The position numbers and the translations under genes are program-made. Positions 9,698 to 33,068 of a stretch of 64,000 bases of DNA are shown here, in pieces (position 1 is the first letter of the stretch; every line of letters starts with the position of its first letter). The DNA is from a candidate division WOR-3 bacterium (GTDB lineage: Bacteria; Hydrothermota; Tepidihabitantia; SM23-42), in assembly GCA_029858255.1 (NCBI GenBank), contig JAOUFJ010000006.1, forward strand, positions 4,285 to 68,284, written 5' to 3'. The notes beneath the pieces are model-generated. The model saw only the letters and a program-made list of their open reading frames with translations. It did not search any database and was not told where the DNA came from.

Positions 9698-11545
9698 CTA
9701 GTGCCTTTTGCGCTTGCCGAGTAGTATGATGTCACGCAGGTCTTCGGTCGTTCCTGCTTTGTGCCACGTTTTGTCAAAATCAGGGTCTTGTGATATCTGA
9801 GCAATTGCCATCAGTGCTCTCAGATGTGATCGGCGTCTGTCTTGAGTGCCGACCAGCACGAAGATGATGTGGACTGGTTCAGGCGCATCGGGGAATATTA
9901 TACCTTCCTTAGCGCGCACAAGTAGCACATCGAATTTATCTTTTCCCTCGATGATGATATGTGGGATCGCCAATCCCGGCCTCAATGCCGTGCAGGATTG
10001 TTTCTCGCGTTCAATGAAGAGTTGAACGAATTTTGCCTTTTCAACACCCAGTCGATTGCTCAATTGCTCAGAGGCTATTTGTACAAAATCATCAAATTGC
10101 AGGGTTTTTTCGAAATCGAGTACTACGGCTTCTTTGATCAAATGGTCGAAGTCATCCTCGATTATCTCTTCTCGTTCTTTCACTACTTCGCGTAATTCCT
10201 CGCGTAGTGTATCTGTCGCGATCTGTCTGTCGGTAACACGTTCGACTATGCACATGAGCGCCGATTCTCTTGTTATCTTCGGCCGTACGTATAGCAAGTA
10301 CCAGATTAGTGCAGCGGCGATGAATGTCGCTGTCATCGCGAGCGTTAGAACGCCCATGTCAGCGATGAGAAAAAGATAGCCAAGGATGCCGGCGATCTGG
10401 ATATACGGGTAAAAGGGTGCATGGAAACTTGGCTGATAGTTCTGAAGCCGACTCTCGCGCATTACTATCACCGCAAGATTTGCCGAAATGTACAGGAGGA
10501 GCAGCATGGTCGAGGCGGCTTTTATCAGCACCTCGAGATCGAGAAATAGTATTGTGATGATCATAATAGAGGAGGTTACTATTATCGCGATATGCGGTGT
10601 CTTGAATTTTTTGCTTATTTTGGAGAAGAAGTGGGGCAGAATTTCGTCGCGGCTCATCGCAAGCGGATAGCGAGATGCAGACATGATCCCCGCGTTGGCG
10701 GTTGAAATGAATGCCAGAAGAGCGGCAATAGCAGTAACAACGATGCCACCCATTCCCCAGAATGTTTTTGCTCCGGCGGAAATCGGCGTGAGAGATGTTC
10801 TTAACGATTCTGGATCGAGTATGCCTACGGTCACGAAAGCCACGGCGACATAGAGGCCGAGAACCATTATGTACGCGAGCATCATCCCGAGCGGCACTGT
10901 TGTTTTTGGGTTCTTGATCTCCTCGGCAACGCTCGCGACCTTGGTGAGTCCACCAAAAGAGATGAACACAAGCCCGGCAGTGGAAAGTACGCGGCCAAAA
11001 CCATAGGGTGTGAAATTGTCGAGACGGTCCGGATGCACATTCGTGAAACCTACGATCACGTAGAGACAGAGAATGACAAACAGTGCTACAACGAGGAGGA
11101 TCTGAGTTCTGCCGGCCTCCTTTATGCCTAAGAGATTTACCATCATGAAGAAAAGGCATAATATGACCGCTATTGCCTTGATTGCCGGAATGCTGAGACC
11201 GGGGTTGATCAGCAGTGCGAATATTCCCATCCCCATCAATGCAAACGCCGTCTTCAGACTCAGTGACAGCCAGCTTGCCATCCCGGCAACCGTGCCCGGA
11301 GCAAAACCCATGCTTCTTGTTATGTAGAAATAGTCGCCGCCTGCTTTGGGCATGGCAGTTACCAGCTCTGCTTTGCTGAGCAGCGCCGGTATAACGAGCA
11401 CCCCGGCGATTATGTACGAAAGGATCATGGCCGGCCCAGCTTTGGCAAATGCGATGCCGGGCAGCACAAACAACCCGGAACTAATCATGGCTCCGGACGC
11501 GATAGCGAACACTTCGAAAAGGCCGAGTTCCTTTTTCAGAGCCAT
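9698..11545 (-). CDS. APC-superfamily amino acid permease fused to a C-terminal PTS EIIA type-2 (EIIA-Ntr-like) domain
   Basis: N-terminal ~430 aa with 12 predicted TMs and an APC-type start (LGLFEVFAIASGAMISSGLFVLPG). C-terminal ~150 aa resembles the PTS EIIA-2 fold (LIEREKQSCTALRPGLAIPH...LLVRAKEGIIFPDA...HIIFVLVG). Confidence 0.7.
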   Translation of the reverse strand: MALKKELGLFEVFAIASGAMISSGLFVLPGIAFAKAGPAMILSYIIAGVLVIPALLSKAELVTAMPKAGGDYFYITRSMGFAPGTVAGMASWLSLSLKTAFALMGMGIFALLINPGLSIPAIKAIAVILCLFFMMVNLLGIKEAGRTQILLVVALFVILCLYVIVGFTNVHPDRLDNFTPYGFGRVLSTAGLVFISFGGLTKVASVAEEIKNPKTTVPLGMMLAYIMVLGLYVAVAFVTVGILDPESLRTSLTPISAGAKTFWGMGGIVVTAIAALLAFISTANAGIMSASRYPLAMSRDEILPHFFSKISKKFKTPHIAIIVTSSIMIITILFLDLEVLIKAASTMLLLLYISANLAVIVMRESRLQNYQPSFHAPFYPYIQIAGILGYLFLIADMGVLTLAMTATFIAAALIWYLLYVRPKITRESALMCIVERVTDRQIATDTLREELREVVKEREEIIEDDFDHLIKEAVVLDFEKTLQFDDFVQIASEQLSNRLGVEKAKFVQLFIEREKQSCTALRPGLAIPHIIIEGKDKFDVLLVRAKEGIIFPDAPEPVHIIFVLVGTQDRRRSHLRALMAIAQISQDPDFDKTWHKAGTTEDLRDIILLGKRKRH

Positions 11546-16780: not shown

Positions 16781-18988
16781 CTATTTTGTATACCGGAATT
16801 CCCTGCCTATTGATATATAGTAATTAACGCGAGCTCCGATAAAATTTTCTTCATCGGTTTCGCCAATTCCCATAACGACGGTGAACGGACCGATCGGTGT
16901 ATTGGTTCTGACGCCAATGCCTGCACCCCAGTGAAGTTCTGATGCCGGGTTCTCGTTCCGGATAAGATCATCAAGACGTTCAAATGTAGCGACGTTGGAA
17001 ACCAACTGCAAATATACTGGGTAATCTTTCTGGTCCAGCAGGTTGAGTATCCTGTATTCAAGACCGAGATGCAAGATGGTACGGTTCTTGGTCGTGAAGA
17101 ATCCATTTTCGTATCCGGTGAGATTACTGCCGCCTGTATGATAATAGTAATCCCATGCCGGATCGCCGTGAGAGAATCCCAGGTTCAATCCCGGATTGAT
17201 CAATACACGTGAGGACAATGGTATATAGTGATCAAATGAAAAATCGATCCGGATGAAATCAGAGGAAGCTTTTAACCTTTCTGTAGAATATATGATTTCT
17301 GTTTTATATGATGAACCTTTATTGGGCAAATGCAGATCGTCGTAAGTGTTGTACTCCATCCGGAAAGTTGGTCCAACTATCCATTCATTCTCTGGTATCG
17401 AATCGAAGACCGGTATTTGTGGCAATCTGTGAATCGCTTCCCGTGCCGTAATGCCGAAGTTGAAAAAAGCATTGCGTCCGAGTATATACCCTGCCTCAAT
17501 CAACGCTCCATGGTAGGTTGTAGTATAAGCTGTCAACCAGGTATTATTCTCGAAAAAAGGTCTATCTATGGATCCCCGGAAGATATCGATCCGGTAGCCC
17601 ATCGGGACGGCGAATAGCCGGGTGCCTGTTAATCCGAGTCTTACGGCACGTGGATTGCCGAGATTGAGCGCGCCGCGTATGCTCGCTCCGGTTCCCCATA
17701 GGTTGCTTTGTCCACCCTCAATGCCAAGGATGAGATTGTCGCTGTTGTCATATCGAACACCCAGTGCGTAGAATCCATATTCAGACTCTTTGGTTTGGTA
17801 GATAACTTCAACCGAATCTTCGCCGTGAAATATCAGTCTGTAATTTATGTCCGAGAACAAACCTGTGTTGTATAGCGAGATCATATCTCTGTGCAGCAAT
17901 TGAAAATCGAGTTTCATGCCTTTCTTCGTCCTCACGAGATGGCTTATAGTCGAAGAACCGGTGACTTCAAGACCTTCAAATCGAATACCGCTTACGAAAG
18001 GCAAGGGACGACGCGTTATCCCGTTGGGCTTTACATATGCCTTTCTACCATTCAACTTAGCTCTTATCTCAGGTAATGCAGCTTCCGCTGCTTTTTCGCC
18101 GGCCGCGATCAGTTCACGGGCACGGTTGAAGTCCGATGACATGAAAGGATCGACATTCGGTTCAATAACAATATCCGTAAGCTGCAATTGTGCACGGTAA
18201 TCGCAGATATTTATTAGATCCATTGTGCGTGAAATTACGTCTATCAAACCTTCGTTGTTCGATCTTTGTTTGTTACGGATAGTTGTACTTGCTATGATCA
18301 GATCGGGCTCGAATTCAAGCAGAGGCTGAACCGGAAGAAACTGCTGGACACCGCCATCAATGAGCTCAAGTGTATCAATCGTCTCCGGAGAGAATACTCC
18401 GGGAATAGCTATACTTGCTCTTATTGCCTGTTCGAGTCGTCCATTCTTCATGGTGATAAGATCGCCGCTTGTGAGATCGACTGCTATTGCCCGATAAGGG
18501 ATGGGAAGGCTGTCAAAATCGTAGTAAGTGTCGAATTCGATTTCTGACAATAGATTCATTAGCAAGAATTCGACGTTTTGAAGCGATATCAAACCGGACG
18601 GAAGGGTTGGAACGAATTTCTTGTGTCCTAATACAAGGATATATCGTTGGTTCTGCTGGCGTTCAGGTAGATAAAGCGCACCAAATGGAACGCTCGAGCT
18701 GAAGAGTTTGGAAAAATCTGCGTTGACAGCAATACTCTCTATTTCTGCTGCGGTGTATCCGGCTGCGTACACACCGCCCACGAGTGAGCCCATACTGTTT
18801 CCAACAATACAGCATGGGTGAATGCCCTCGCGCTCCAGTACCTTTAGCACACCGATGTGTGCAAATCCAAGCGCAGCACCGCCCGATAGGGCATATCCGA
18901 TACGGACCTGCGATGTATCACCATCCTTAGTGTCAGGGGAAGGAACGAGGCTAACAAAGAACGCTGTAATGATAAATATCGATATCAT
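16781..18988 (-). CDS. patatin-like phospholipase fused to POTRA/Omp85 (surface antigen D15-type) outer-membrane barrel (PlpD-like, type Vd-like)
   Basis: Patatin Gly-rich loop GGAALGFAHIGVL and the GxSxG nucleophile (GNSMGSLVGG) in the N-terminal part. The C-terminal half is beta-barrel-like with alternating aromatic patterns and an Omp85-type C-terminus. Confidence 0.75.
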   Translation of the reverse strand: MISIFIITAFFVSLVPSPDTKDGDTSQVRIGYALSGGAALGFAHIGVLKVLEREGIHPCCIVGNSMGSLVGGVYAAGYTAAEIESIAVNADFSKLFSSSVPFGALYLPERQQNQRYILVLGHKKFVPTLPSGLISLQNVEFLLMNLLSEIEFDTYYDFDSLPIPYRAIAVDLTSGDLITMKNGRLEQAIRASIAIPGVFSPETIDTLELIDGGVQQFLPVQPLLEFEPDLIIASTTIRNKQRSNNEGLIDVISRTMDLINICDYRAQLQLTDIVIEPNVDPFMSSDFNRARELIAAGEKAAEAALPEIRAKLNGRKAYVKPNGITRRPLPFVSGIRFEGLEVTGSSTISHLVRTKKGMKLDFQLLHRDMISLYNTGLFSDINYRLIFHGEDSVEVIYQTKESEYGFYALGVRYDNSDNLILGIEGGQSNLWGTGASIRGALNLGNPRAVRLGLTGTRLFAVPMGYRIDIFRGSIDRPFFENNTWLTAYTTTYHGALIEAGYILGRNAFFNFGITAREAIHRLPQIPVFDSIPENEWIVGPTFRMEYNTYDDLHLPNKGSSYKTEIIYSTERLKASSDFIRIDFSFDHYIPLSSRVLINPGLNLGFSHGDPAWDYYYHTGGSNLTGYENGFFTTKNRTILHLGLEYRILNLLDQKDYPVYLQLVSNVATFERLDDLIRNENPASELHWGAGIGVRTNTPIGPFTVVMGIGETDEENFIGARVNYYISIGREFRYTK

Positions 18989-19047: not shown

Positions 19048-19617
19048 TCAGTTCTGCCCGCAGCATTTCTTGAATTTCTTTCCACTGCCGCAAGGGCAGG
19101 GGTCGTTGCGGCCTATTTTTGCCTCAGTTTTCGCTTTTTGTGCTGTTTTGCCTTTGCCTGTTTTCTTCGGAGCAACCGGGCTTTTTGATTTCCTGGATTG
19201 TGTCCGAGCGGGCAGTGCTTTTTGGAAGGCCTTGTTTTCCTTCTTGATCATTCCATTGAGTTGTTCGCCGTTCTTTATGTGTCCGGTGTCATCGAGAAAA
19301 CCAATAAAGTCTATCAATATGTCAGATACATGCTCTTTCACTTGTGAGGACAAGGTAAGTTTGCTGGGGGCGTAAACGAGCATGAAGTGCTGGATGTGAT
19401 TTTCGTGCAGTTCTCTCAGTTCCTTTCTTTCCTCGAAGAAGAGGTAATCGAGCAGGCTCTTGGTCAGGTATTCTGCAGCGTCTTTATATGACTTTGTTTT
19501 TGCCTTGAATGCTTTTGACTCAAGAAACCCGCGACTCAATGCATTGGTTGTATGTACCAGTCTTTTTTCCCGCTTCCGTTCCTCTGCGCTTTTTTTCTGA
19601 ATGTCTGCTAATGCCAT
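19048..19617 (-). CDS. hypothetical protein with C-terminal SEC-C metal-binding motif
   Basis: C-terminus [15 protein letters not shown] is a SEC-C zinc-binding motif. The rest is unassigned, with a Lys-rich linker. Confidence 0.6.
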
Positions 19618-19716: not shown

Positions 19717-19773
19717 CATAATTTAAAGACAGAAATTAGGAGGTTAAGAGGATGAGAACTTGAGAAACGAAAG

Positions 19774-19818
19774 TAACGGTATTAACGAGAATAACGAAAT
19801 TAACGAACGTAACGTCTC
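19774..19818. repeat. 5 tandem 9-bp units each starting with TAACG (TAACGnnnn x5)
   Basis: TAACG starts at 19774, 19783, 19792, 19801 and 19810 with an exact 9-bp period (taacggtat taacgagaa taacgaaat taacgaacg taacgtctc). Located between the 3' end of the membrane-protein operon and the SEC-C promoter. Confidence 0.7.
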
Positions 19819-19838
19819 TTAGTAAATTCGAAATACCG

Positions 19839-20468
19839 TCACCGTATTATCCCCAACCACTCTCCCAAGAGGAATTGCAGCCTGCCGATGAGCAGGCTTA
19901 TACGAGCCATGACCGTATAGCCGAAAGAAGCGCCGAATCCGAGCATGATGAATATAATACCGAGATTCGCCACCGGTTTGATTATGCCCTTGCGTTCCCT
20001 CGAGAAAAAGAAGTAGACCAAAGTTGATATGACACCGATCAGTATTACTACAGCCCAGAGGCCTGTGTCCCATTTTGCGAATGCATCACGTACCAGCAAG
20101 GTTCCTCGTGTTTGTCCCAGGATGTCTCTCTGGAAGTAAGCAGGAATTGCCACGCCAGAACCCCATCCCAAAACGAATGCGATAGGCAGCCGTATCAGAT
20201 GATTGAATCTGGGGACAAATCGAGCGAAGTAACATAGTGCAAAGAGGAGCGGTACGATATAAAGCAGGTTACCCTGGATGAACAGTGGTTCGATAAGATT
20301 TGGCCGTATTTGATTATGCCAGGTCAGGGCTACAAGATATCCTGCAGAGACGCCGACGAACAAATGTTCGGCAAAGCGGTAGAGTATATTATCACGGTAT
20401 AGAAATGAAAATATGCAGAGGGTCAGGAAAGCAGCAAGCCAAACCCAGGGATCTGGTGATATATTCAT
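19839..20468 (-). CDS. hypothetical multi-pass membrane protein (gene 4 of an uncharacterised 4-gene operon)
   Basis: 209 aa with ~6 hydrophobic helices and no recognisable catalytic motif. The start overlaps the stop of the upstream gene by 4 bp. Confidence 0.5.
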   Translation of the reverse strand: MNISPDPWVWLAAFLTLCIFSFLYRDNILYRFAEHLFVGVSAGYLVALTWHNQIRPNLIEPLFIQGNLLYIVPLLFALCYFARFVPRFNHLIRLPIAFVLGWGSGVAIPAYFQRDILGQTRGTLLVRDAFAKWDTGLWAVVILIGVISTLVYFFFSRERKGIIKPVANLGIIFIMLGFGASFGYTVMARISLLIGRLQFLLGEWLGIIR

Positions 20469-21328
20469 TTCTTCCTCCTGAGGTAGAAATACCCAACATT
20501 TCCAAGAATAATAAAGATCATGATCAATAGATGACCGAGTGACTGTGCGTCCATACCTTGTGAAGCCTTGAATGTTCCTTTTGCATATCCCTTTCTTTGT
20601 ACGAGATTTTCATATTCAGACGCGCCCTTCATTCCTGCGAGGAGCCCGGTGACCTGTCCGGTTTCTACATAAGGATAAACGTCAGCTGCGGATACCGCTG
20701 TTACTCCAACTCCGAGGCGCGCACCGTACCTTGATTGGGCAAAGAGTAACCACTGTCGCCATCCAGGATCGCCCGTTGACAGTGTGACGATCATACTTAC
20801 GTCCCTGTAATTCTTTACCGAACGCATCATTGGCAGCGAATCAAGGGGAGTGCCGTAGTAATCGACAGGGAACACCGCTTTAATGTTTTCGCCCATTCCC
20901 AGGAGTACTGCTGCAACACCGAACTTGTAGCCCAGAAAGGCAAAGTCGACACCATATTGCTTGCTGAAATCGTTAGAGAGTTCTTCCAGTCCCATTTCCA
21001 CCATGCCGGTACCCTGCGGCCAGAGCGCCATGAGAATCACCCTTACGTTCTTCGAAAAGCATTGACGCGATATTGCCAGAAACATTGGGTAGAGCTCAGG
21101 GAGTGACTGTGGATCAAAATCACATGATATCAGAACGGGTTTTGATTCGCTGTCGAGTGCCTCGATCGCTTCGAAGAGTTTTTTGCTTTGAGGCATGACA
21201 TTCACGGGTATTCCTATCGGTATGACAAGAGGTATAGCCACAGCGAGCGCAATAGTGAGAAAGATAATGCGTCGGGGTATTTTTGTTAAAGACTCGAGAA
21301 ATTTCATTTCGAACCTCCTCCGAGCCAT
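20465..21328 (-). CDS. hypothetical bitopic membrane protein: N-terminal TM, ~230-aa soluble domain, C-terminal TM (gene 3 of the operon)
   Basis: 287 aa. TM helices at the N-terminus ([20 protein letters not shown]) and C-terminus ([17 protein letters not shown]). Middle domain unassigned. Overlaps the upstream gene by 25 bp. Confidence 0.5.
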
Positions 21329-21930
21329 GAGCGTTCGATACCGAGGATGATCTTGAGTGCAGTTGAGATACTGCCAAAGGCAACACCGAAAATTATTCCG
21401 CGTTTTGCCGCTGTGTTAGGTACGCTCAAAAGCCATTCAGCGAATTCGGGGAGTCTCGGTGTGATATAATATCCGAACGGGACCATGCCGAGCATTACCA
21501 CGAAGGCAGCCACGAGCAGTATCGTCGCTTCTGTTGTTCGGGCGCGGAACGCACGGTATGCTGCCGACGCCATGTAGAATGCGAGAATGGCGTACATCGA
21601 AGCGCCCAGCGGTAAGATAATGTACGTCCACAGGGTCATGAATAAACTTCCTCTTTGTATACCCCAGAAGATCCCCAGTGTGGCCATTACCGCTAGTCCA
21701 GCCAGAGTAACATAACTGAAATACCAACTTTCCTTTTTCCTCCTGATGCGATTTGTGTGGTGGTCGATGATACTCCCGATCCCGAGAACCCAGGCAAACC
21801 CGACGATCGCGATGTACCAGCGTGTTGTGTGATCATAGAATTGAGTGCTGATAGAGTGCGGTACGAAGAACTGAATGATCATTGCAAGCCCGAGGAACAT
21901 ACATATTATTAGTGGCATTTTCTTATTCAT
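21304..21930 (-). CDS. hypothetical multi-pass membrane protein (gene 2 of the operon)
   Basis: 208 aa with ~6 TMs. RBS AGGAGG in the 14-bp gap to the upstream gene. Confidence 0.5.
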
Positions 21931-21944
21931 CTTATCCTCCTACG

Positions 21945-23039
21945 TCAAATGCTGAATAGATCGCGAATCCACGGCAGGCCAAGTAATATAAGGGCCGAGC
22001 CAGCGAGCAGGATACCCAGGATGATCATTTTGCCCCAGTCCTGGCCTTTTATCGATCCCATGAGTAATGGTTCCTTTGATAGATATGCCGACGCCGCGTA
22101 TAGTTCCTCGCCGATCAGGGTATAGTCACATGCAGTGATGAAGAATGGTAGTTGGAAGACGGAATCGGTTCCGGCGATCTGGATCGCTCCCGTTGCTGCG
22201 CCGGTTTCTGCGAGCACTAAAGATTCGGCCCAGAAATATCCAAGGAAGAGATTCGTTGCAGGTTTTTCCCTCACCATCGTACCGCAGACTGCTGCCGTGT
22301 ACGCCCACTGGTTTTCGGTCAGGAAGTACACATTGTCTGGATTGAAGGCATCCGGTCTGCCCGCATCGGTATAGGCTTCTTTCACTATCTCGCGGGCAAC
22401 GACGTAGACAACCGGACTTCGGTTGGGCACGAGTAATGTCGTGTTGTATTCGGCTGTTTTCTTGGCGACGAGGGATAGTATGTTCAGTGAGGCAAGGGTT
22501 GCGATATCGTCGATCGTAGAAAGGCCAGGAACGTATAGAATGGGTTTACCCATTTCCGTTGCCCTGCCTACCGCGTCTTCCAACGCTTCGAGCCCGGCCA
22601 GTTTTCGTATGAAGAGATTTTTCCCCTTACGTGCGCTGTAGATGAACCAGAATAGTAGTATCGCATATATAATGAACCCGATGAGCACATTGGTCCGGTC
22701 TGTATTGAACCATTGCTGATAGCTCATTGCGTATTCCGATATTTCAGACTGCGCGATAGCGTCTCCATCTTTGATGGCAAGTATTTGGTAGCGGTAGGGG
22801 ATACCATCCTCTGTTTGTGAATCAAGATATTCCTGCTCGAGTCGGTTCAGGCTGGCGACTTTTTCGAGTTCCTCGTCCTGTTCAGCGCGCCAGACTTCAT
22901 AAGCATCGATCGACATGTCTCCGATGTATGGTTCCCAGGAAACGAGGATCCTGCCACCATCATCGTTAGGATTGTCCCTCGCATGCGGTACACCTATTTC
23001 CCCGAATAGCGATACTGCAATGATGAGTATTATTCCCAT
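21945..23039 (-). CDS. hypothetical membrane protein: N-terminal TM, small beta-rich (FN3-like?) domain, second TM, then a ~200-aa domain and C-terminal TM (gene 1 of the operon)
   Basis: ~364 aa. The ATG at 23039 is preceded by AGGAGG-aagtg. The ORF track starts one codon earlier at a GTG. No recognisable family. Confidence 0.5.
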   Translation of the reverse strand: MGIILIIAVSLFGEIGVPHARDNPNDDGGRILVSWEPYIGDMSIDAYEVWRAEQDEELEKVASLNRLEQEYLDSQTEDGIPYRYQILAIKDGDAIAQSEISEYAMSYQQWFNTDRTNVLIGFIIYAILLFWFIYSARKGKNLFIRKLAGLEALEDAVGRATEMGKPILYVPGLSTIDDIATLASLNILSLVAKKTAEYNTTLLVPNRSPVVYVVAREIVKEAYTDAGRPDAFNPDNVYFLTENQWAYTAAVCGTMVREKPATNLFLGYFWAESLVLAETGAATGAIQIAGTDSVFQLPFFITACDYTLIGEELYAASAYLSKEPLLMGSIKGQDWGKMIILGILLAGSALILLGLPWIRDLFSI

Positions 23040-23142
23040 CACTTCCTCCTCACGTGATTGTTGTTGCTATATCATTAAAAATATTGGAAGTATTCCGCGT
23101 GTTTGGATTTCTTGATCACTCGGGATGATATGAAATCGCAAA

Positions 23143-24414
23143 CTATTTGGTGAGTGTAAGATATGATATTAGAAGGGATGCGATGACCGCTGTGATTTCA
23201 AGATAGTCCTGCCAGAATTTGAAAACCTTTCGCGGCACAAAGACTACATCGCCCTCCTCGATCAGCGGATCACTGTCTACGTCGATCTTTTTGTTATCCC
23301 TCTTCACGTATGCGCTTCCCATACTTGCGTCGCCGAGGGGCCCGCCTGCGATGCCGATATAATCAGTTGCTCGCAAGTTGGGTTGGAACGGAAAAGATCC
23401 GGGGGTGACAACTTGGCCCTGCACGTAGACCACGGAATTCACGGATGGAACAACCAGAACATCGCCGGTTTTCAATCTTATGTTCTGTTGGCTGCTCGTA
23501 TCGACAAGAACGTCTGAAAGATTGATGTAGAGTTTATCTTCGTTTCTTTCGATATATGTATGAATTGGGTCAGCCCAGGGTGTAAGACCACCTGCTTTCA
23601 GTACTAGATCGGCGACACGTTCGCCTTCCAGGAGCTCATACAACCCCTCGCTTGATTTTTCTCTCGCCGCAGTGAGTTCTGCTACGCGTAATTCGTACTC
23701 CCTCTTCCCGAAAACCGCACCCTTCACGACCACTGATTGTTCCATTTTTGGGATTATCACCACGTCTCCGTCTTGAACGAACGGATTCGAGAGTGCATCA
23801 CCAGTTTTTTCGAATTCTGTGAGATTCACTTTAGCATATAGGCGCCCTTGTCTTCTCAGTTCAATTTTTGCTCTCGAACCGATTGCATTGATGCCGCCAG
23901 CGTCATCGATGACCCTTGAGGCCCGGTAGATTGGTAACGCCCGGACGACGCCCGGGTTAGTCACTTCGCCGACCACCAGTACATCAAAGGTGCGCATGCC
24001 GATCAGGGTGAGATCCAACCTGAAATTCCTGAGGTATCTGGAGAACGCCCTGGCTACCGAGTCCTTGGCAGCCTTCAGAGTCAATCCGTAGACGGGGATA
24101 GCCGCGACTACATCATATTGAGGTATGTAGGACCCATCCATGGTTGGGAGTGAAGCCACAGGTGTATTCAGGGTCATCTTTCCCTCGAAGGTGACACCTG
24201 TGATATAGGAATAGTTGGTCGCGCCGGTGATCGTCACAAGCAGTGAGTCACCGGGCATGAGCATGTATTCTTCATCAGATACGACCGGTTTTGGAAATGT
24301 TGCTTCCTGGTTTACATCAGATGTTCCTTGTGTTTCGGTTGCATTCGATTGTAGGGCGATGGCAATCAAAACAATGACCAGCAGCGAGAATTTTTTCATG
24401 GTTAAATTATACAA
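23143..24414 (-). CDS. polysaccharide export protein, OPX/Wza family (Poly_export + SLBB domains)
   Basis: Signal peptide. Poly_export-like region YMLMPGDSLLVTI...YGLTLKAAKDSVARAFSRYL. Repeated SLBB-type GDVVIIP / GDVLVVP / GDVVFVP motifs. Confidence 0.7.
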   Translation of the reverse strand: MYNLTMKKFSLLVIVLIAIALQSNATETQGTSDVNQEATFPKPVVSDEEYMLMPGDSLLVTITGATNYSYITGVTFEGKMTLNTPVASLPTMDGSYIPQYDVVAAIPVYGLTLKAAKDSVARAFSRYLRNFRLDLTLIGMRTFDVLVVGEVTNPGVVRALPIYRASRVIDDAGGINAIGSRAKIELRRQGRLYAKVNLTEFEKTGDALSNPFVQDGDVVIIPKMEQSVVVKGAVFGKREYELRVAELTAAREKSSEGLYELLEGERVADLVLKAGGLTPWADPIHTYIERNEDKLYINLSDVLVDTSSQQNIRLKTGDVLVVPSVNSVVYVQGQVVTPGSFPFQPNLRATDYIGIAGGPLGDASMGSAYVKRDNKKIDVDSDPLIEEGDVVFVPRKVFKFWQDYLEITAVIASLLISYLTLTK

Positions 24415-24471
24415 AAATCACCGAACCTGTCAACATAAAAAATGCCATGTTCATGCGCCGTAAACATCTGC

Positions 24472-24530: not shown

Positions 24531-27086
24531 ATGAGCAAATTACTACTGATTTTGACTCCCCTAATTCTATATGCAGGTACTGTAGGTAAGATAGCTGGTC
24601 GCGTACTCGACGGCGAGACAAATGAACCTTTGATTGCGGTCGACGTCTATATTGAGGCCCTCGGTGCGGGTGGTGCCACGGATTTGGAGGGGTACTACTT
24701 CATCCTGAATGTTCCTCCTGGTAGTTACGAAGTAGAGGCATCGATGATCGGCTATCGTGCTGAGATAAAAAAGTCGGTAGCGGTTTTTTCTGACCGTACC
24801 ACTTATGTAGATTTCAAACTCGACCCCACGGTTATTGAACTTGAGACACCTGTGGTCGTTGTGGCAAAGAAACCGGTTATTGAGATAGACATGACCTCGA
24901 AAGAGACCCGTATTACACGGGAACAGTTCGACATTACCCCGGTCGAAAAACCTTCAGAAGCCCTGGCTCTCCAGGGCGGGGTAACCACTGACGCGGCTGG
25001 CGATCTCCACGTGCGCGGTGGCCGCAGCGGCGAACTGGCATACTATATTGAGGGGATCGAGGTTTCAAACGCCCTGTTGGGCAGTGCCCCGGTCCTCAAC
25101 AAGAATCTCATCTCCGAAATGTCCCTTCTCTCAGGTACTTTCAATGCTGAGTACGGAAACATAATGAGCGGCGTTGTCAACATCATTACACCGGAAGGTG
25201 GTAGAGAGATATCAACAAATTTAGAGTACACTTCTTTTTTGATCAACTCGTCGCCGTATCGTAAGAAGGATTGGATCAACGATATCGATTCTTCTTACTA
25301 TGACGCGCATCGCACTTTTGACTCCGTCTCGCAGGAGTGGATCTCGGATTACGAGGTGCCTGATTTGATGGATTCCAAGGATTTGCATTTTCTCGGTGAG
25401 ATAAATGGAAGTATCGAAGGGCCGGTTCCCGGTGACCGTTCGACGCGCTTTTTCATCGCCGGCAATTATGCGAATCAGGAGTCCTATCTTCCTTTTGGCT
25501 ACGATCTGACCCGGTCGGTCAATGGCAAGCTGACACGGAGATTCGGTCCCAATTTTAAAGTACTTATCGACGCGCAGTACATCGATGATGAATCGCAGCG
25601 CTACAGCCACTTATACAAGTATTTGTATGATAACTATCTGGTGAGTCGAGAAAAGAGTATGCGTGGTATCATTGGGTTGAATCATTCACCGGCAAACAAT
25701 TTCTTCTACAACGTGCGTGTTGGGTATATAGAAGACAGATTCGATACAAAGGTGCCATCGGATAGTTTAGACATATTTGGCTCCATCGAAGAGCCGGTCA
25801 GTGATAATTACTCTGAATTCTACATCTCGGGTTACCCGCAATTCCGTCAGGAAGTGAAAACCAAACAGTACATTGCGAAAGCCGACTTCAACTGGCAGCT
25901 GGGCAAAATGCACAGCCTGAAATTTGGCGGAGAACAAAGCTTCTACGTTTTTGAACTGGCGAACCGGCAGCAATTGTTCCCGCGGACGCCGATCATATAT
26001 CAGCAGTATGAGCAGAAACCACGTGATGCGGCAATCTTCGTCCAGGATAAGATCGAGCACAAGTATCTCGTGGTAAATGCTGGCTTGCGTTTTGACTACA
26101 GCTACCCGAATGCTGATATGTGGGAGGATATAGAGGACCCTACATCTGATGTCACCGATGTGAAACCGCAGTACCAGGTTTCTCCAAGGCTGGGCCTTTC
26201 TCATCCTATAACCGATGATGCGATGCTTCATTTCGCTTACGGCCATTTCTTCCAGATGCCGCCTTATGAGATCATGTATTTTAACAGCAGCTACGTGGCC
26301 AACCCCGAGGACATCCCGCGGTACGGATTGGTCGGTAACCCGCGCATATTGCCCCAGCGTGCGACCGCGTATGAGGTTGGCATAAAGTATGCGATCCTGG
26401 ATATCTACGGCGTCGATGTTACACTTTTCCTGAAGGATATCAAGAACCTGCTTTCGACGACCGAAGTGCGTACGTTTCCGTACAATTACATAATCTACAC
26501 GAACGATGATTTCGGGAGCGTGCAGGGGATCGATGTTACGTTGCAGAGGGAACTCGTATCCAATATCGGCTTTAGCATTAACTACACTTATCAAGTGGCG
26601 CGCGGTAACCGCTCGTTCGCGATGCAGGGTTTCTATGATGTCTACACTGGTCTGCCCGAGCGCATAAAGGAATACTTCCTTGATTTTGACCGCCGACACA
26701 CGCTCGCGTCAACGTTCCAATTTCTCCTGACAGAGCGGGGCGGTATCGGTGTCAATTTCAGGATTGCGAGTGGATTACCTTACACACCTTATATCAGTGA
26801 AGGCGTAGTCGTTGAAGAGAATTCCGCACGCATGGCCTGGTCGTATTCGCTGGACATCCTTCTTCATCAGGGTATTCAGGTTGGCGGCGCACTGCTTGAG
26901 TTCTTCGTCAGCGCCACGAATCTGACCGATGCAAAGAATCCTCTTTACGTCTATTCACGCAGCGGTGAGCCGTGGGTGACTGGCGAGGAAGCAGGTGGAC
27001 TAATGGGCTCGCAAGACTATATCATCGATCCTTCGAACGTCGGACCAAGAAGAACGATCAAAGCCGGTCTGAGAACAAAACTGTGA
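24531..27086 (+). CDS. TonB-dependent receptor-like outer-membrane protein with N-terminal carboxypeptidase-regulatory-like domain (SusC/RagA-like architecture)
   Basis: Signal peptide. CarbopepD_reg-like GKIAGRVLDGETNEPLIAVDVYIEA...GYYFILNVPPGSYEVEASMIGY. Plug-like region (LHVRGGRSGELAYYIEGIEV). Long barrel-like remainder, 851 aa. Confidence 0.75.
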   Translation: MSKLLLILTPLILYAGTVGKIAGRVLDGETNEPLIAVDVYIEALGAGGATDLEGYYFILNVPPGSYEVEASMIGYRAEIKKSVAVFSDRTTYVDFKLDPTVIELETPVVVVAKKPVIEIDMTSKETRITREQFDITPVEKPSEALALQGGVTTDAAGDLHVRGGRSGELAYYIEGIEVSNALLGSAPVLNKNLISEMSLLSGTFNAEYGNIMSGVVNIITPEGGREISTNLEYTSFLINSSPYRKKDWINDIDSSYYDAHRTFDSVSQEWISDYEVPDLMDSKDLHFLGEINGSIEGPVPGDRSTRFFIAGNYANQESYLPFGYDLTRSVNGKLTRRFGPNFKVLIDAQYIDDESQRYSHLYKYLYDNYLVSREKSMRGIIGLNHSPANNFFYNVRVGYIEDRFDTKVPSDSLDIFGSIEEPVSDNYSEFYISGYPQFRQEVKTKQYIAKADFNWQLGKMHSLKFGGEQSFYVFELANRQQLFPRTPIIYQQYEQKPRDAAIFVQDKIEHKYLVVNAGLRFDYSYPNADMWEDIEDPTSDVTDVKPQYQVSPRLGLSHPITDDAMLHFAYGHFFQMPPYEIMYFNSSYVANPEDIPRYGLVGNPRILPQRATAYEVGIKYAILDIYGVDVTLFLKDIKNLLSTTEVRTFPYNYIIYTNDDFGSVQGIDVTLQRELVSNIGFSINYTYQVARGNRSFAMQGFYDVYTGLPERIKEYFLDFDRRHTLASTFQFLLTERGGIGVNFRIASGLPYTPYISEGVVVEENSARMAWSYSLDILLHQGIQVGGALLEFFVSATNLTDAKNPLYVYSRSGEPWVTGEEAGGLMGSQDYIIDPSNVGPRRTIKAGLRTKL

Positions 27087-27099
27087 ACAAGGAGTCTGT

Positions 27100-29850
27100 A
27101 TGTTATTAATTCTATTTTTGTTTTTCTACCCCGAGGCCGATAAGGCAGTCGGTATTTCGGACAAAGGTGAATTATCCAACGTCACTTCCAACTTCGGATT
27201 GATCGCGAATTTGCATTATTTCACGCCAGCCTTCCACTGGCCGAATTCGGCACCTTTTCAACATCAATACAGTCCCGGATGCGGAATCTTTGCCGCGAGG
27301 AACGATACGGTTATCGAATCTTTCCTGAGTCTGGCAACTCCGGAATGGGCGCCGTTGGAGGGTTCATACGGAACGTTCTATTCAGGTACAGTGACGACCC
27401 CCGACGGCACGCCAGTCATCGCCACATCGGATGACATGGAGACGTGGCCGTTGATAGGAGGAGTACCTACATGGCCGGGACCGTGGCGCAAGGATACCAC
27501 AGGGCAGCAGGTGCCTGGCGAATTTACTTCGGACCAGGATCTTTTCTGTATCTTCAACGACCAGTCTGTCTTGGGGTTGCAGGTGAATCAATCCACTTAT
27601 TCTTACGGCCGTAACTACGCCCAGGATTTTATCTTCTACGATTTTAAAATCTACAATACAAACGGTACATCGATCGATGATATCTATTTTGGTTTCCGGG
27701 GGAATTTCAGGTGCGACTATGACATGCAGGACTATGTCGGACTCTACCGTGACTCTGCCGTGACATTCGTTTATCACTGGGATGCCGATGGTATACCGCA
27801 GGATCCCTGGGAATCGGTGGGTATGATCGGCGTGGCATTTCTTAATCAGCAGATCGACAATTTCCATTACTATCGCAAAGAGGATGAGCCGAGTGATGAT
27901 TTCCGTCTGTTCCCGATAATAGCATCTGACCCCAGTAATCCTAATATCGATCCCAGCCTTTACTTCCATGGTTCGAATGTTTATATTGATGACCCATCGT
28001 TCGTGCAATCCCTGCCACCTGAATCGACAAGCGCATACAATTACATGGTTTCAGCGGGACCCAGAACGATCATGCCTGATGATACGCTTCAATTTACGAT
28101 TGCAGTCATCTGTGGTGAGGATTCGGCAGACTTGTTCGAAAATCTCGAGACGGCGCTCATGATGGCCGACAACTACTTTCTGGGTAGTGGTGCACCAGCA
28201 GCACCGACAGTGCAGGCAGTGGCTGACTACAGGAAGATCACGTTATTCTGGGATGCGCAACCCTCCGAATCATCGACCGACATACTGACCGGTAAACAGG
28301 ATTTCGAAGGTTACAAGATATACCGAAGCGAAGATCTGGGTATTAGTTGGGGAGACGAGATTACCGATCATACAGGGTCTTTGGTCGGGTATGTCCCGCT
28401 CGCTCAATTCGACCTTATCGACGGCATCGAGGGAGTAGACCCGGCTTTCCCGTATCAGTCCCTGGGTCGTGAGACAGGATTGGCGCATACCTTCGTCGAT
28501 ACTACGGTCTATAATGGTATCGAATACTGGTACTGTGTCGCTGCATATGATCAGGGCAATCAGGTTCCTGATTCTCTCGAACCGTCCTATGAGAATTCCA
28601 AAGGACGTCCCAGCGCAGCCAATGTTGTTTCGGCTGTTGCCGCGACAATGCCATCTGGCTATGTCCCGGCCTACATCGAGGGCGGTGATACGCTCGCTCC
28701 TATCGGTGGCAGCTGTGACGGATCGGCGTTGGTGAGAGTCATTGACCCCGCTCAGATCCTACCTCATACCTACCGGATAACCTTTTCGGTTGATTCTGTA
28801 TACCACCCGGCAGAAACGACATGGGTCGACACTACTATGTTCACTCTTTTCGACGTGACCGATCAGGAGACCCTCCTGAGCAAATACGAAATTTCCGATA
28901 ACTCACTCGATAACATTCCTGTAGTCGATGGTTTCAGACTCATCCTTGCGAATTCAGAGAAGACCGTGTCAATGGATTGGACTCAAACCTCAGCCACGCC
29001 AAGCACTTTCGAGTGGTGGGTTTGGTCTGAGCCTTATAGCCCTATGGTTGGCCCGTCCTATATTTATGGTAATCCAAACTTCCGTGTTGTCGTGGACCAT
29101 GATGCGCACTCTGTATTCGGCATTGAAGACGGTTTTGGCGGCGATACCCTGACGATCGAGATGCCATTACGGGTATACGATATAACCGACGAGTTGAACC
29201 CGGTCGACGTCAGCGAGTACTGCTGGCTGCTCGATTATGCATACTCTGACGTCTTCTCACCGCAGATCGAATCATTGTATTTCGGTCCGGAAGGATGGGA
29301 CCTCATTCCGGGCGGGGCTGGTTATAACGGCACGGCTGCCGGGCAAACTGCCGGGTTCTATGATCAGCTCGGGCTGTGGAATGGCGACGCGTCAACGGCA
29401 ACGGCTGTTGTCTACTTTGGTACTCAAAACGGCGACAGCAGCGCAATTCCGCCGGTGGATGGTGATGAATTTACGGTGAAGCTCCTGGCTCCTTTTTCCG
29501 ATTCAATATCATATGAGTTCAGTGCCGTGCCATACGCGATCAACGCCGCGCAGGTACGCCTGGATAGTGTCAGGGTCGTGCCCAACCCCTACATACTTGC
29601 ATCGAAATTCGAGAGCACGCCATATGACCGCCGGTTGATGTTCACGCACCTGCCTGAGGAGTGTAAAATAATGATATACAACGTTGCTGGAGAGCACATC
29701 AACACAATAGAGCACAACAATAATCTGGGCTACGAGTACTGGGATTTACGCACGAAATTCGGTGTGGAAGTGGCATATGGAATGTACATATTCGTGGTTA
29801 GAGCGGATGGCAATGTCAAGGCAGAAGGCAAATTCGTAATAATCAAATAG
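27100..29850 (+). CDS. large secreted hypothetical protein with FN3-like region and T9SS C-terminal sorting domain
   Basis: 916 aa. RBS AAGGAG 8 nt upstream. C-terminus VRVVPNPY...MIYNVAGEHI...GMYIFVVRADGNVKAEGKFVIIK is CTD-like. Internal FN3-like segment (ITLFWDAQPSESSTD...YKIYRSEDLG). Confidence 0.6.
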   Translation: MLLILFLFFYPEADKAVGISDKGELSNVTSNFGLIANLHYFTPAFHWPNSAPFQHQYSPGCGIFAARNDTVIESFLSLATPEWAPLEGSYGTFYSGTVTTPDGTPVIATSDDMETWPLIGGVPTWPGPWRKDTTGQQVPGEFTSDQDLFCIFNDQSVLGLQVNQSTYSYGRNYAQDFIFYDFKIYNTNGTSIDDIYFGFRGNFRCDYDMQDYVGLYRDSAVTFVYHWDADGIPQDPWESVGMIGVAFLNQQIDNFHYYRKEDEPSDDFRLFPIIASDPSNPNIDPSLYFHGSNVYIDDPSFVQSLPPESTSAYNYMVSAGPRTIMPDDTLQFTIAVICGEDSADLFENLETALMMADNYFLGSGAPAAPTVQAVADYRKITLFWDAQPSESSTDILTGKQDFEGYKIYRSEDLGISWGDEITDHTGSLVGYVPLAQFDLIDGIEGVDPAFPYQSLGRETGLAHTFVDTTVYNGIEYWYCVAAYDQGNQVPDSLEPSYENSKGRPSAANVVSAVAATMPSGYVPAYIEGGDTLAPIGGSCDGSALVRVIDPAQILPHTYRITFSVDSVYHPAETTWVDTTMFTLFDVTDQETLLSKYEISDNSLDNIPVVDGFRLILANSEKTVSMDWTQTSATPSTFEWWVWSEPYSPMVGPSYIYGNPNFRVVVDHDAHSVFGIEDGFGGDTLTIEMPLRVYDITDELNPVDVSEYCWLLDYAYSDVFSPQIESLYFGPEGWDLIPGGAGYNGTAAGQTAGFYDQLGLWNGDASTATAVVYFGTQNGDSSAIPPVDGDEFTVKLLAPFSDSISYEFSAVPYAINAAQVRLDSVRVVPNPYILASKFESTPYDRRLMFTHLPEECKIMIYNVAGEHINTIEHNNNLGYEYWDLRTKFGVEVAYGMYIFVVRADGNVKAEGKFVIIK

Positions 29851-29858
29851 GAGGAGTC

Positions 29859-30887
29859 ATGGTGAAAATGATAACACGCATAATGAAAATGGTTGCCCTT
29901 GTGGTCATGATATCCCTTTCCCTGGGTTTCTGTTTCACTAAGGTTGGTACTACAGCGGCACCTTTCCTGAAGATCGAGTATGGTGCGCGGCCTGTGGCGA
30001 TGGGCGGTGCATTCGTGGCTTTGGCTAATGATCCATCCGGGATATACTACAATCCTGCCGGCATTGCTGAGATCAAGACTGCTCACTTCATGGGTGGCTA
30101 TACTGTATGGTTTGCCGATCTGAAATACAACTATGCCACGTTCATATTGCCGACTCAAAGGATGAACTTTGCCCTCTGGGGTTCTTTCCTATATTCTGAT
30201 GAAATTGAGGTTACTACAGTAGAGAATCCTGAGGGTACTGGGCAGGAATTCAGTTATGTAGACGGTCTGCTCGGTATTACGGTGTCAGCATTTCTGTCAG
30301 ACCGGCTTTCAATTGGGATCTCAGGCAAGTATATCCAGCAGAAGTTGTTCAATGAAAGCGCTTCAACATTTGCCCTGGATGTTGGTTCAATACTGCGTAC
30401 ACCTTTGAAAGGTGCACGACTGGGAATGTGTCTGGCGAACTACGGCGGGCGGATGCAGCTGTTCGGTAACGATCTTATCGTGCAGACAGATCCCTGGCCT
30501 GAATATACGGGTAACCCGGAAGTCGAAGCGAGGCTTACAACAGAATCATTTCCGCTGCCGCTCGCCTTCAAACTGGGTATTGCAGTCGACCTTTTTGGTC
30601 CTGGGGAGGCGTTCGCAAATAGTGAAGTTCACCGGGTGACGCTGGCAGTGGATGGAATACATCCAAACGATGGCGAAGAGAAATTACAGTTCGGCATAGA
30701 GTATGGTCTCTATAACACGCTCTTTCTCCGCGGTGGGTACAAGGTCAATTATGATACCCAGAAATACACCGCGGGTGCGGGCATGAAGTTCAGTATCGGA
30801 CAGCGAACCTTCGCATTCGATTATGCCTACGTTGATATGGATGTGCTGGAAGCCACACATCGTTTTTCACTTTTTATCGGGTTCTGA
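29859..30887 (+). CDS. PorV/LptO-like (UPF0164-like) outer-membrane beta-barrel protein, putative T9SS cargo shuttle
   Basis: Signal peptide, then the N-terminal motif GTTAAPFLKIEYGARPVAMGGAFVALANDPSGIYYNPAGIA. I recall this from the PorV/LptO/UPF0164 family. Beta-barrel-like C-terminus ending in F. 9-bp gap after the CTD protein with RBS GGAGGAG. Confidence 0.55.
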   Translation: MVKMITRIMKMVALVVMISLSLGFCFTKVGTTAAPFLKIEYGARPVAMGGAFVALANDPSGIYYNPAGIAEIKTAHFMGGYTVWFADLKYNYATFILPTQRMNFALWGSFLYSDEIEVTTVENPEGTGQEFSYVDGLLGITVSAFLSDRLSIGISGKYIQQKLFNESASTFALDVGSILRTPLKGARLGMCLANYGGRMQLFGNDLIVQTDPWPEYTGNPEVEARLTTESFPLPLAFKLGIAVDLFGPGEAFANSEVHRVTLAVDGIHPNDGEEKLQFGIEYGLYNTLFLRGGYKVNYDTQKYTAGAGMKFSIGQRTFAFDYAYVDMDVLEATHRFSLFIGF

Positions 30888-32075: not shown

Positions 32076-33023
32076 ATGAAGTTATTATGTACAGTCATGT
32101 TGTTGAGCAGCATGCTCTTCGGTCAAATACTTTATGAAGAGCATTTTACGGGTGGTGCCACTCAGCTGCAATGGGATCCCTGGGTTATATACACGACAAT
32201 GGATGTGGTCAATGATCCCACCACTCCTGGCGGTGATTCGTGGATAGGCAGTGTTTCAAATGATTCTGCTCCGATCGCCGCTATGTACGCGGGCAGCTAC
32301 GACCTCAACGATTATATCGCTGAGGCATGGATTTTTACCGAAGTCAGCCCGGCAATGGGATCATACAACGGGCTATGCGTGAGGATCGACACGGCGACCG
32401 GCGTGAATGCATTGTATCACCTGGTTTCAGATTTTGACAACAGCGCAAGGTTGATGTTGCGTCATATCACCGGTGCCACGCCTTCGATTATCAGGGAATG
32501 GACGTCCGGAGAGATCCCCGGAGGAATACCGGCCTCATCGTCCTGGCACAAGTTCAAGATAAAGATCGTAGCAGATTCGATCTGGGCATATTACGATGAT
32601 GTCGAACTACCAGACTGTCCGTTCATCGACAATCGCGTGACAAAGGGCTTCTTCGGAATATATTTCTTCAATGCACTTGCTTTCAGTTCGACCAACTGTG
32701 ATGATATCGTTGTAACCGGTCCGACCGGTATCAGTGAATATGGTTCCGAGTCAGTAAGTTCCTTCAGAGTCTATCCGAACCCTTTCCGCACCACGACAGC
32801 TATCAGATATCAGATACCAGATATCGGAAATCCGTCACTCATGATATATGATGCGGCAGGACGGCTAGTCAGGGATATTTCAAGTCAGGTATCTGTTATC
32901 GGTGATCAGGTATCGGTAAGCTGGGACGGTCGGGATGCCTCAGGTAATGCGGTTACGCCCGGTGTGTATTTTATTGCCGATGGTATTGGTAACGGACTTG
33001 AAAAAGTGATCAAACTGCCTTAG
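32076..33023 (+). CDS. secreted protein with N-terminal jelly-roll/lectin-like (LamG or DUF1080-like) domain and T9SS C-terminal sorting domain
   Basis: Signal peptide. C-terminal FRVYPNPF...LMIYDAAGRLV...VSWDGRDASGNAVTPGVYFI...KVIKLP is CTD-like. The N-domain assignment is tentative. Confidence 0.6.
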   Translation: MKLLCTVMLLSSMLFGQILYEEHFTGGATQLQWDPWVIYTTMDVVNDPTTPGGDSWIGSVSNDSAPIAAMYAGSYDLNDYIAEAWIFTEVSPAMGSYNGLCVRIDTATGVNALYHLVSDFDNSARLMLRHITGATPSIIREWTSGEIPGGIPASSSWHKFKIKIVADSIWAYYDDVELPDCPFIDNRVTKGFFGIYFFNALAFSSTNCDDIVVTGPTGISEYGSESVSSFRVYPNPFRTTTAIRYQIPDIGNPSLMIYDAAGRLVRDISSQVSVIGDQVSVSWDGRDASGNAVTPGVYFIADGIGNGLEKVIKLP

Positions 33024-33039
33024 TCAGTATGTAAAAAAA

Positions 33040-33068
33040 AGGGGGCAGCTAGGCTGCCCCTTTTTTTT
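33040..33068. terminator. bidirectional rho-independent terminator between convergent CTD-protein genes
   Basis: A8 run, a perfect 9-bp GC stem GGGGGCAGC (33040-33048), loop tag, GCTGCCCCC (33052-33060), then T8. Serves both strands. Confidence 0.85.

Follow-up and report, generated by a model that had tools for sequence, protein, structure and literature searches.

A conserved four-gene DUF6754 membrane cassette, located behind a Wza-like gene in a candidate division WOR-3 bacterium

What is the role of four adjacent genes for membrane proteins which share a transcription unit with a Wza-like gene and do not resemble known export components? This question is raised by a stretch of 64,000 nucleotides from a candidate division WOR-3 bacterium (contig JAOUFJ010000006.1, positions 4,285 to 68,284), which we call the window. 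Its minus strand contains four consecutive open reading frames (ORFs) of 365, 208, 287 and 209 amino acids (aa), referred to as genes 1 to 4, and all four products are predicted membrane proteins. An earlier note, made from the sequence alone, described them as a translationally coupled operon close to a Wza-like gene of the OPX type, and suggested that they form an inner-membrane partner for the export of polysaccharide or another envelope polymer. As discussed below, comparison with other genomes indicates that the four proteins are very probably subunits of one obligate heteromeric inner-membrane complex, encoded by what we call the DUF6754 cassette, after a domain found in gene 1.

The arrangement of these genes in other species is the main argument for such a complex. 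Species-representative genomes were scanned with a DUF6754 alignment, and the loci were drawn from the best 80 of at least 599 confirmed stretches. The contexts compared include 82 loci (designated L001 and so on) with 102 DUF6754 gene 1 copies, whose six-frame ORFs were searched with the window proteins. Gene 1 is followed by genes 2, 3 and 4, in this order and on the same strand, in 82 of the 102 copies: The conservation of gene order, which the earlier note had proposed to check, is indeed found. Sixteen of the remaining 20 copies are cut by contig ends. The other four comprise a disrupted cassette, an artefact of ORF calling and two copies of gene 1 on its own. In L001 (the WOR-3 chromosome CP070664.1, 11108-16118) gene 2 is called as 89 aa only, genes 3 and 4 are missing, and the shortened gene is followed over about 5 kb by small ORFs on the reverse strand (DUF7717, DUF7417, Metallophos). 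This looks like a cassette destroyed by the insertion of a mobile element, which would have left the OPX gene and gene 1.

The best 80 stretches cover about a dozen phylum-level lineages, poorly studied: WOR-3, Stahlbacteria, TA06, Latescibacterota, Edwardsbacteria, Eisenbacteria, Poribacteria, Zixibacteria, Ignavibacteria, Cloacimonadota, Fermentibacteria/Aegiribacteria, Coatesbacteria, Mcinerneyibacteriota and CSSED10-310. Cassettes often stand in tandem arrays of two or three. In Zixibacteria and Ignavibacteria the cassettes of the arrays (first, second and third) are position-specific orthologues, with 69-79% identity within a position and at most 72% between positions. Such arrays are old, and their members specialised. 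The complete 2.30-Mb WOR-3 chromosome CP070705.1 has at least five cassettes at three loci (L016, L044 and L092), one of which is syntenic with the window: Three cassettes are in tandem, one is found next to acyl-CoA dehydrogenase and DUF4388 genes, and one is linked to an OPX gene. In most loci the cassette is self-contained and its neighbours are heterogeneous. Among 111 other immediate neighbours no Pfam family is found more than four times, and there is no enrichment of glycosyltransferases, flippases, polymerases or PCPs. None of these four types of protein was found among the window ORFs scanned, at about 9.7-34.6 kb.

The four families are not related to each other. We have considered a duplicated two-gene module (gene 1 related to gene 3, gene 2 related to gene 4), which was rejected: No relationship within either pair is found by BLASTP or hhalign, and internal repeats are absent from genes 2 and 4. 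The cassette is thus not a duplicated pair. On the other hand, a natural fusion of genes 3 and 4 exists, protein P0410, which aligns to the entire gene 4 (E 1e-35). The conserved order of the four genes, this fusion and the presence of four non-homologous families all point to a heteromeric complex. In any case, genes 1 to 4 are genuine and not chance ORFs: Homologues of each number from hundreds to thousands, and the order of the four is conserved across phyla.

According to the earlier note none of the four could be placed in a known family, which holds for genes 2, 3 and 4. Gene 1 is a full-length match to Pfam PF20539, DUF6754 (386.6 bits with a cut-off of 27, E 5.4e-116, residues 109-361), covering positions 3-255 of the 257 in the profile. 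The family is defined only as a domain of unknown function, and the partner families have no Pfam model. The predicted layout of gene 1, with topology deduced from hydropathy and charge distribution as for the other genes, is an N-terminal hydrophobic segment, a periplasmic fibronectin type III (FN3) domain, a transmembrane (TM) segment, the cytoplasmic DUF6754 domain and a C-terminal TM segment. The FN3 domain corresponds to the beta-rich module between hydrophobic segments which the earlier note had mentioned; the cytoplasmic domain of about 200 aa and the last TM segment had been overlooked. In the AlphaFold2 (AF2) model the FN3 domain is a beta-sandwich with a pLDDT of about 90. In the PDB the gene 1 profile matches nothing but FN3 domains, of titin and Fn3-like chains, the matched residues being 13-107, and gene 1 homologues have PF00041 matches. 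This periplasmic part is variable, with one to several FN3 domains. The DUF6754 part has about 100 invariant residues, and the window gene retains those best conserved across phyla. Identity of gene 1 between phyla is about 50% over most of the protein.

Genes 2 and 4 are polytopic, in agreement with the earlier note, each with about six hydrophobic segments, a count which is a reading of the sequence. Gene 2 has an invariant 11-residue loop and an invariant Arg cluster. Gene 4 has the conserved motifs SFLYxDNPxYxFAEH and YFFFSxEHKG, and a Glu-His pair which is nearly invariant where the second hydrophobic segment begins. Gene 3 is predicted to have an N-in TM segment, a periplasmic domain of 226 aa, a second TM segment and a short basic cytoplasmic tail (RRKK), the same order of TM, soluble domain and TM which had been noted before. 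A confident structure model gives a Rossmann-like alpha/beta fold for the periplasmic domain. The gene 3 family has 3771 representatives (50%-identity clusters) at E <= 1e-3. Some relatives (P0300, P0366, P0349 and P0410) contain large inserts or a fusion; all the inserts, which are CARDB-like Ig, HEAT or helical repeats, are located at a single loop of the periplasmic domain. Both the FN3 domains and the CARDB-like Ig inserts fall in segments predicted to be outside, which agrees with the topology.

Sequence and profile searches with genes 2, 3 and 4 give no match in Pfam, NCBIfam or PDB (Pfam and NCBIfam scans of window proteins were reported to E <= 0.1). Diverse homologues, 29 of gene 2 and 25 of gene 4, were scanned at E <= 1 with nothing consistent: The sole match of the Wzx, Wzy, PCP or ABC-2 type is Wzy_C_2 in one member, with E 0.029. 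A CHASE2 label carried by one UniRef homologue of gene 3 was discarded, the window protein has no Pfam CHASE2 match at E <= 0.1. In the databases most homologues of the four genes are called "hypothetical protein", those of gene 1 also "DUF6754 domain-containing" or "fibronectin type III domain-containing". In the literature library which was searched, we have found no paper mentioning DUF6754 or PF20539.

The organisation of the genes is shown in Table 1. AGGAGG is found 5-6 nt ahead of each start of genes 1 to 4. Two of the three junctions are as described in the earlier note: A gap of 14 nt between genes 1 and 2 includes an AGGAGG 5 nt before the gene 2 ATG, and there is a 4-bp overlap (ATGA) of genes 3 and 4. 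The third, a 25-bp overlap of genes 2 and 3, should be corrected. Gene 3 most likely starts at ATG 21307, which has GGAGGAGG 6 nt upstream and gives a product of 280 aa, the size of almost all listed homologues, so that this junction would also be an ATGA overlap. In the same way, gene 1 most likely starts at ATG 23039, with AGGAGG 5 nt upstream, and its product would have the 364 aa found in homologues.

Table 1. Features of the five-gene region on the minus strand of the window.
Feature	Position	Strand	Basis or comment
Promoter TTGACA-16 nt-TATAAT, 12/12 matches	24406..24433	-	Promoter scan; ahead of OPX gene
OPX/Wza-like gene, 418 aa	23143..24399	-	First in operon
Gene 1, 364 aa	21945..23039	-	365 aa from GTG 23042
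Gene 1, FN3 domain	~22713-22985	-	Profile and AF2 model
Gene 1, DUF6754 domain, cytoplasmic, ~200 aa	~21960-22718	-	Pfam and topology prediction
Gene 2, 208 aa, polytopic membrane protein	21304..21930	-	
Gene 3, 280 aa	20465..21307	-	287 aa if from 21328
Gene 4, 209 aa, polytopic membrane protein	19839..20468	-	
Long imperfect hairpin beginning at gene 4 stop codon, then U-rich stretch	19772..19843	-	Inverted-repeat search

The OPX gene had been placed downstream of the four genes; it is actually upstream (5') and opens the unit. We have scanned the minus strand between 19000 and 24700 for promoters. A perfect promoter is located just ahead of the OPX gene; between this gene and gene 4 no other promoter comes close to it in quality. 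The only other 12/12 promoter in the scanned region (19651-19624) is ahead of a SEC-C gene, and ends 6 nt before its ATG at 19617. The spacer between the OPX gene and gene 1 has 100 nt and contains neither a promoter nor a significant hairpin. For these reasons, the transcription unit most likely consists of five genes, OPX-g1-g2-g3-g4, which agrees with the coupled unit, co-oriented with a Wza homologue, of the earlier note. The -10 hexamer ends 6 nt ahead of the OPX ATG, so the OPX mRNA is probably leaderless. In fact, both operon-leading genes (OPX and SEC-C) appear leaderless, and the internal genes have a strong AGGAGG. The hairpin after gene 4 is a possible but weak candidate for an operon terminator: The fold of a 146-nt stretch has -25.3 kcal/mol with a z of -1.39, which is not significant. 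The spacer between gene 4 and the SEC-C promoter also contains 9-nt-periodic AACGAAANT-like repeats at 19766-19819, in families spaced 18 and 9 nt.

The protein encoded by the first gene matches Poly_export, PF02563 (30.4 bits with a Pfam cut-off of 28), and has three SLBB matches after the PES domain (SLBB, PF10531, 1.7e-19; SLBB_2, PF22461, 4.4e-16). BLASTP with Escherichia coli Wza gives E 3e-9, with 21% identity over 203 aa which span the Poly_export region. To judge from these matches, the OPX protein is a true but distant homologue of Wza. Its N-terminus, MKKFSLLVIVLIAIALQSNATETQG, contains a signal peptide and no Cys, hence no lipobox: A lipoprotein signal of the Wza type is not found. 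The C-terminus, YLEITAVIASLLISYLTLTK, is hydrophobic with periodic Ser/Thr, a predicted hydrophobic or amphipathic helix. The protein falls below every NCBIfam exporter cut-off (pepcterm_export, EpsE, PRK15078), the best score is 78.4 bits compared with a cut-off of 180.

How general is the link between cassette and OPX gene? A profile search of 83 loci finds an OPX gene in four of them. Two of these four are the same contig from two sources, which leaves three independent OPX-linked loci, and the other 79 have no OPX gene. The flanking genes of the five-gene unit differ among WOR-3/TA06 genomes, where at least three sets are found: the window, L085 and L092; L086; and L001, L002 and L009. In L086, gene 1 identity falls to 64% and the flanks are wholly different. 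The OPX-linked gene 1 sequences form one orthogroup with 77-82% identity, so the linkage may have arisen only once. The OPX link is maintained within a WOR-3/TA06 subclade, it is not a general property of the cassette. The co-occurrence which the earlier note proposed to look for is therefore restricted to this subclade. The suggestion of an inner-membrane partner for polysaccharide has to be modified in the same sense: A partner of the OPX protein is plausible in this lineage; as a general function of the cassette the idea is not supported, with an OPX gene in four of 83 loci and no enrichment of polysaccharide genes.

Other genes around the unit should be mentioned. On the plus strand, a divergent unit (24531-30887) codes for a TonB-dependent-receptor-like barrel of 851 aa with CarboxypepD_reg, a 916-aa protein with no Pfam match and a PorV/UPF0164-like protein of 342 aa. 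In both L085 and L092 the barrel gene keeps its synteny with the OPX cassette, as does, in L092, the gene for the protein of about 920 aa. Genes with sorting domains of the type IX secretion system (T9SS) come next (32076-34599). On the minus strand, a gene at 16781-18988 codes for a fusion of patatin phospholipase, POTRA and Omp85 barrel (735 aa); it is kept downstream of the cassette in L092 and in L085, where it is duplicated. Further away, at 9698-11545 on the minus strand, there is an amino-acid permease of 615 aa with a C-terminal PTS EIIA-2 domain.

Other phyla show a different association. In 13 loci found with gene 1, three genes of a cytoplasmic module, which we call C9, C3 and C1, are located directly upstream of the cassette on the same strand. 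C9 (about 135 aa) has a hydrophobic hairpin and a coiled coil. C3 (about 610 aa) matches GlmL/MutL, PF13941, a family of ASKHA-fold ATPases. C1 (about 375 aa) has a barrel-sandwich hairpin weakly similar to RnfC_N/NqrA_N, a Rossmann-like middle part and a KOW-like end. A small protein which precedes C9, called K4, has two TM segments, and one of its homologues has a sub-threshold bPH-like match. The reverse search with C1 agrees: All three loci obtained have a MutL-like gene upstream and DUF6754 cassettes downstream. This module can be part of a larger operon with glycine-cleavage (gcv) genes, gcvT-gcvH-gcvPA-gcvPB-K4-C9-C3-C1-[g1-g4]xn-lplA, which is complete in L047, L054, L088 and L090; in these four loci the closing gene codes for an LplA/LipB-type ligase. 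In L080 the operon can be followed from gcvT to the end of the first cassette, and lplA was not seen; in L037 and L056 it is partial, limited by contig ends. In L060 and L040, gcv genes flank cassettes which lack the K4-C9-C3-C1 module. The GlmL-like ATPase module and the OPX gene are never seen in the same locus, and the 64-kb window contains no gcv genes. The presence of the ligase gene suggested that C1 could be a lipoylated or biotinylated carrier. This was rejected, since conservation of the hairpin Lys is lacking; GcvH, which belongs to the same operon, accounts better for the ligase. The only known role of the GlmL/MutL branch is that of an accessory protein for B12-dependent mutases, and a literature search on GlmL gave nothing relevant. 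Sequence and profile searches of the PDB with genes 1 to 4, C1 and C3 only give FN3 matches. An anti-phage defence system was also considered and discarded: PADLOC gives no match for genes 1 to 4, the OPX protein, C1, C3, K4 or C9. Neither the cassette of four genes nor its arrays and partner modules seem to have been described before.

Some known systems present similarities with this arrangement. Rnf and Na+-NQR are superficially alike, with two polytopic subunits of about 200 aa and a subunit with a TM-anchored periplasmic domain, and the C1 protein of other phyla has the weak RnfC_N/NqrA_N-type hairpin. A relationship with Rnf/Nqr was tried for these reasons and rejected. When genes 2, 4 and 3 are compared by hhalign with E. 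coli RsxA, RsxE and RsxG, probabilities are 0.1-0.2%; including C1 with RsxC, all are at most 4.4%, and there is no Pfam Rnf-Nqr match. Conserved Cys or flavin motifs are lacking, so the cassette is not an electron-transfer complex. PilMNOPQ and MreBCD, which are envelope-spanning machines with an actin-like ATPase and bitopic and polytopic membrane proteins, resemble the cassette in two respects: An ASKHA-fold, GlmL-like ATPase is encoded together with it in other phyla, and a gene for an outer-membrane channel is found here. Nevertheless, Pfam and NCBIfam scans of the four proteins return no such family, the ATPase belongs to the GlmL/MutL branch, and it was never seen in one locus with the OPX gene.

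A possible model for the complex may be proposed. Genes 2 and 4, which are not homologous, would build the membrane core. Gene 1 would project its variable FN3 part into the periplasm and its strongly conserved alpha/beta DUF6754 domain into the cytoplasm, and gene 3, anchored at both ends, would expose its Rossmann-like domain to the periplasm. The DUF6754 domain would be the docking site of a cytoplasmic partner or activity. The FN3 and gene 3 domains would reach a partner in the periplasm or outer membrane, so that the complex might be a trans-envelope machine for transport or translocation. Several specialised paralogous cassettes would be kept in a genome. In WOR-3/TA06, one paralogue would have been placed in an operon behind an OPX gene, and the OPX channel would have the complex as its partner at the inner membrane, moving a substrate which need not be a polysaccharide. 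In other phyla the cytoplasmic partner would be encoded directly upstream: K4, which may contain a bPH-like domain, and C9, both as small membrane tethers, the ATPase C3, and C1.

The different parts of this model are not equally probable. Functional coupling of the complex to the OPX protein in the WOR-3/TA06 lineage is slightly favoured. For transport or translocation as the function of the cassette the chances seem somewhat short of even. The whole explanation, a heteromeric complex serving as a trans-envelope transport route and joined here to an OPX protein, is our preferred one and should be considered as tentative. Several points weigh against it. No subunit resembles a known transporter, motor or enzyme in the searches described above, so that the idea of transport depends on architecture alone. 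Intact solo DUF6754 genes, with no genes 2-4, are found in L087 (9001-11198), L033 (6792-7928) and L065 (7998-9167). The OPX linkage, limited to a single subclade, could be retained synteny with no physical interaction. A tblastn search of the window with K4, C9, C3 and C1 gives no match at E <= 1e-3 (at E <= 1 there is one weak C3 match, E 0.21). The gcv association in other loci hints at a metabolic role which the model does not explain. Finally, the core of DUF6754 could not be modelled with a 30-sequence alignment (pLDDT < 50 at residues 244-334).

Two further observations concern the solo genes. In L087 and L033 the gene is located directly after purF, and in L087 the next gene codes for a Kelch-like propeller whose C-terminal tail resembles a T9SS sorting domain.

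Other explanations must be considered. The cassette might be a dedicated exporter of polysaccharide or another envelope polymer, which replaces Wzx/Wzy/Wzc or ABC/PCP systems and hands the polymer to the OPX protein. Some observations speak for it: The OPX gene is in the operon of the cassette, the unit is kept amid at least three sets of flanks, and the leading gene codes for a Wza homologue with the Poly_export and SLBB domains of such proteins and a predicted C-terminal helix. The inner-membrane genes which follow it have FN3 and alpha/beta domains in the periplasm, which could serve as a bridge to the OPX protein as a PCP does, and the unit lacks a canonical partner in the inner membrane: In agreement with the earlier note, Pfam and NCBIfam scans detect no Wzc, Wzx, Wzy or ABC component in it. 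Nevertheless, genes 1 to 4 are unrelated to Wzx, Wzy, Wzc/PCP or ABC-2 (no window protein matches them at E <= 0.1), most cassettes have no OPX gene nearby, and glycan-synthesis genes are absent from the unit and not enriched among its neighbours. The OPX protein itself has no lipobox and is below the exporter cut-offs. Polysaccharide export machinery is fast-evolving, unlike the cassette, whose conservation is very high and which is linked elsewhere to a GlmL-like ATPase and gcv genes. We consider such an exporter quite unlikely. The cassette might also stand alone, as a membrane enzyme or a system for envelope or lipid biogenesis, with the OPX adjacency as inherited synteny and no coupling. 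This would fit the self-contained cassettes with heterogeneous neighbours found in most loci, the enzyme-like density of invariant polar residues in DUF6754, and a linkage which may have arisen once, in one orthogroup. On the other hand, the spacer between the OPX gene and gene 1 lacks a promoter or hairpin, a single perfect promoter is found upstream, and the link persists down to 64% gene 1 identity even though the flanking genes have been replaced. A stand-alone cassette is unlikely in our opinion.

Two other possibilities should be mentioned. One is the uptake or exchange of a solute or nutrient (glycine, other amino acids or a cofactor), energised by the GlmL-like ATPase in some phyla, with paralogues which differ in substrate and the OPX protein as a pore. 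The operon with gcv genes and lplA, complete in four loci and represented by parts in three more, suggests it, as do the gcv genes adjoining cassettes in L060 and L040. Uptake systems typically have a number of specialised paralogues in one genome, and the periplasmic domain of gene 3 could bind a ligand. Nevertheless, no similarity with a transporter family is found, genes 2 and 4 lack internal repeat symmetry, and the gcv link is limited to about nine loci and absent from the window. In addition, no ASKHA ATPase is known to energise a transporter, and OPX proteins are known in export, not in import. Uptake has a small chance of being correct, similar to that of polymer export. The other possibility is an energising or signalling platform, with the logic of ExbBD-TonB, TolQRA or GldLM, in which ion flow or an ATPase drives work on outer partners and no substrate is carried. 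The concept is similar: a strongly conserved membrane and cytoplasmic core, variable periplasmic parts, several paralogues per genome and adjacent genes for outer-membrane barrels, here the divergent TonB-dependent-receptor-like barrel and the PorV-like gene in conserved synteny. The near-invariant Glu-His of gene 4 and the invariant Arg cluster of gene 2 could also fit. Nevertheless, no homology to MotA/ExbB/TolQ, TonB, TolRA or GldL/GldM is detected, subunit number and topology differ, no conserved acidic residue is clearly buried in the membrane and no proton-relay residue is identified. The idea is purely architectural, and we regard it as improbable.

In summary, the cassette may be considered as an ancient module of the FCB group and of candidate phyla close to it, and no characterised system can be detected as its relative. 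A more ambitious proposal, which we put forward with considerable doubt, is that it forms the core of an unrecognised class of envelope machines: a heterotetrameric platform which docks a GlmL-type ATPase, with interchangeable periplasmic domains and different outer partners. The WOR-3 paralogue would then be an OPX-dependent route with no Wzx/Wzy, ABC or synthase component. In any case, a 2.3-Mb WOR-3 genome devotes at least 20 genes to five copies of the cassette. A family model exists for only one of its four proteins, no relative of any of them has a solved structure, and we found no paper on the cassette: Current annotation is blank for a large conserved part of envelope or membrane biology in uncultured bacteria of the FCB group. 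Its function may be tested through three links: the Wza-like channel, the module with an actin-fold GlmL-like ATPase and the glycine-cleavage operon. If the complex is a partner of the OPX protein, it would bear on the nature of inner-membrane partners of OPX proteins when no Wzc/PCP is encoded alongside.

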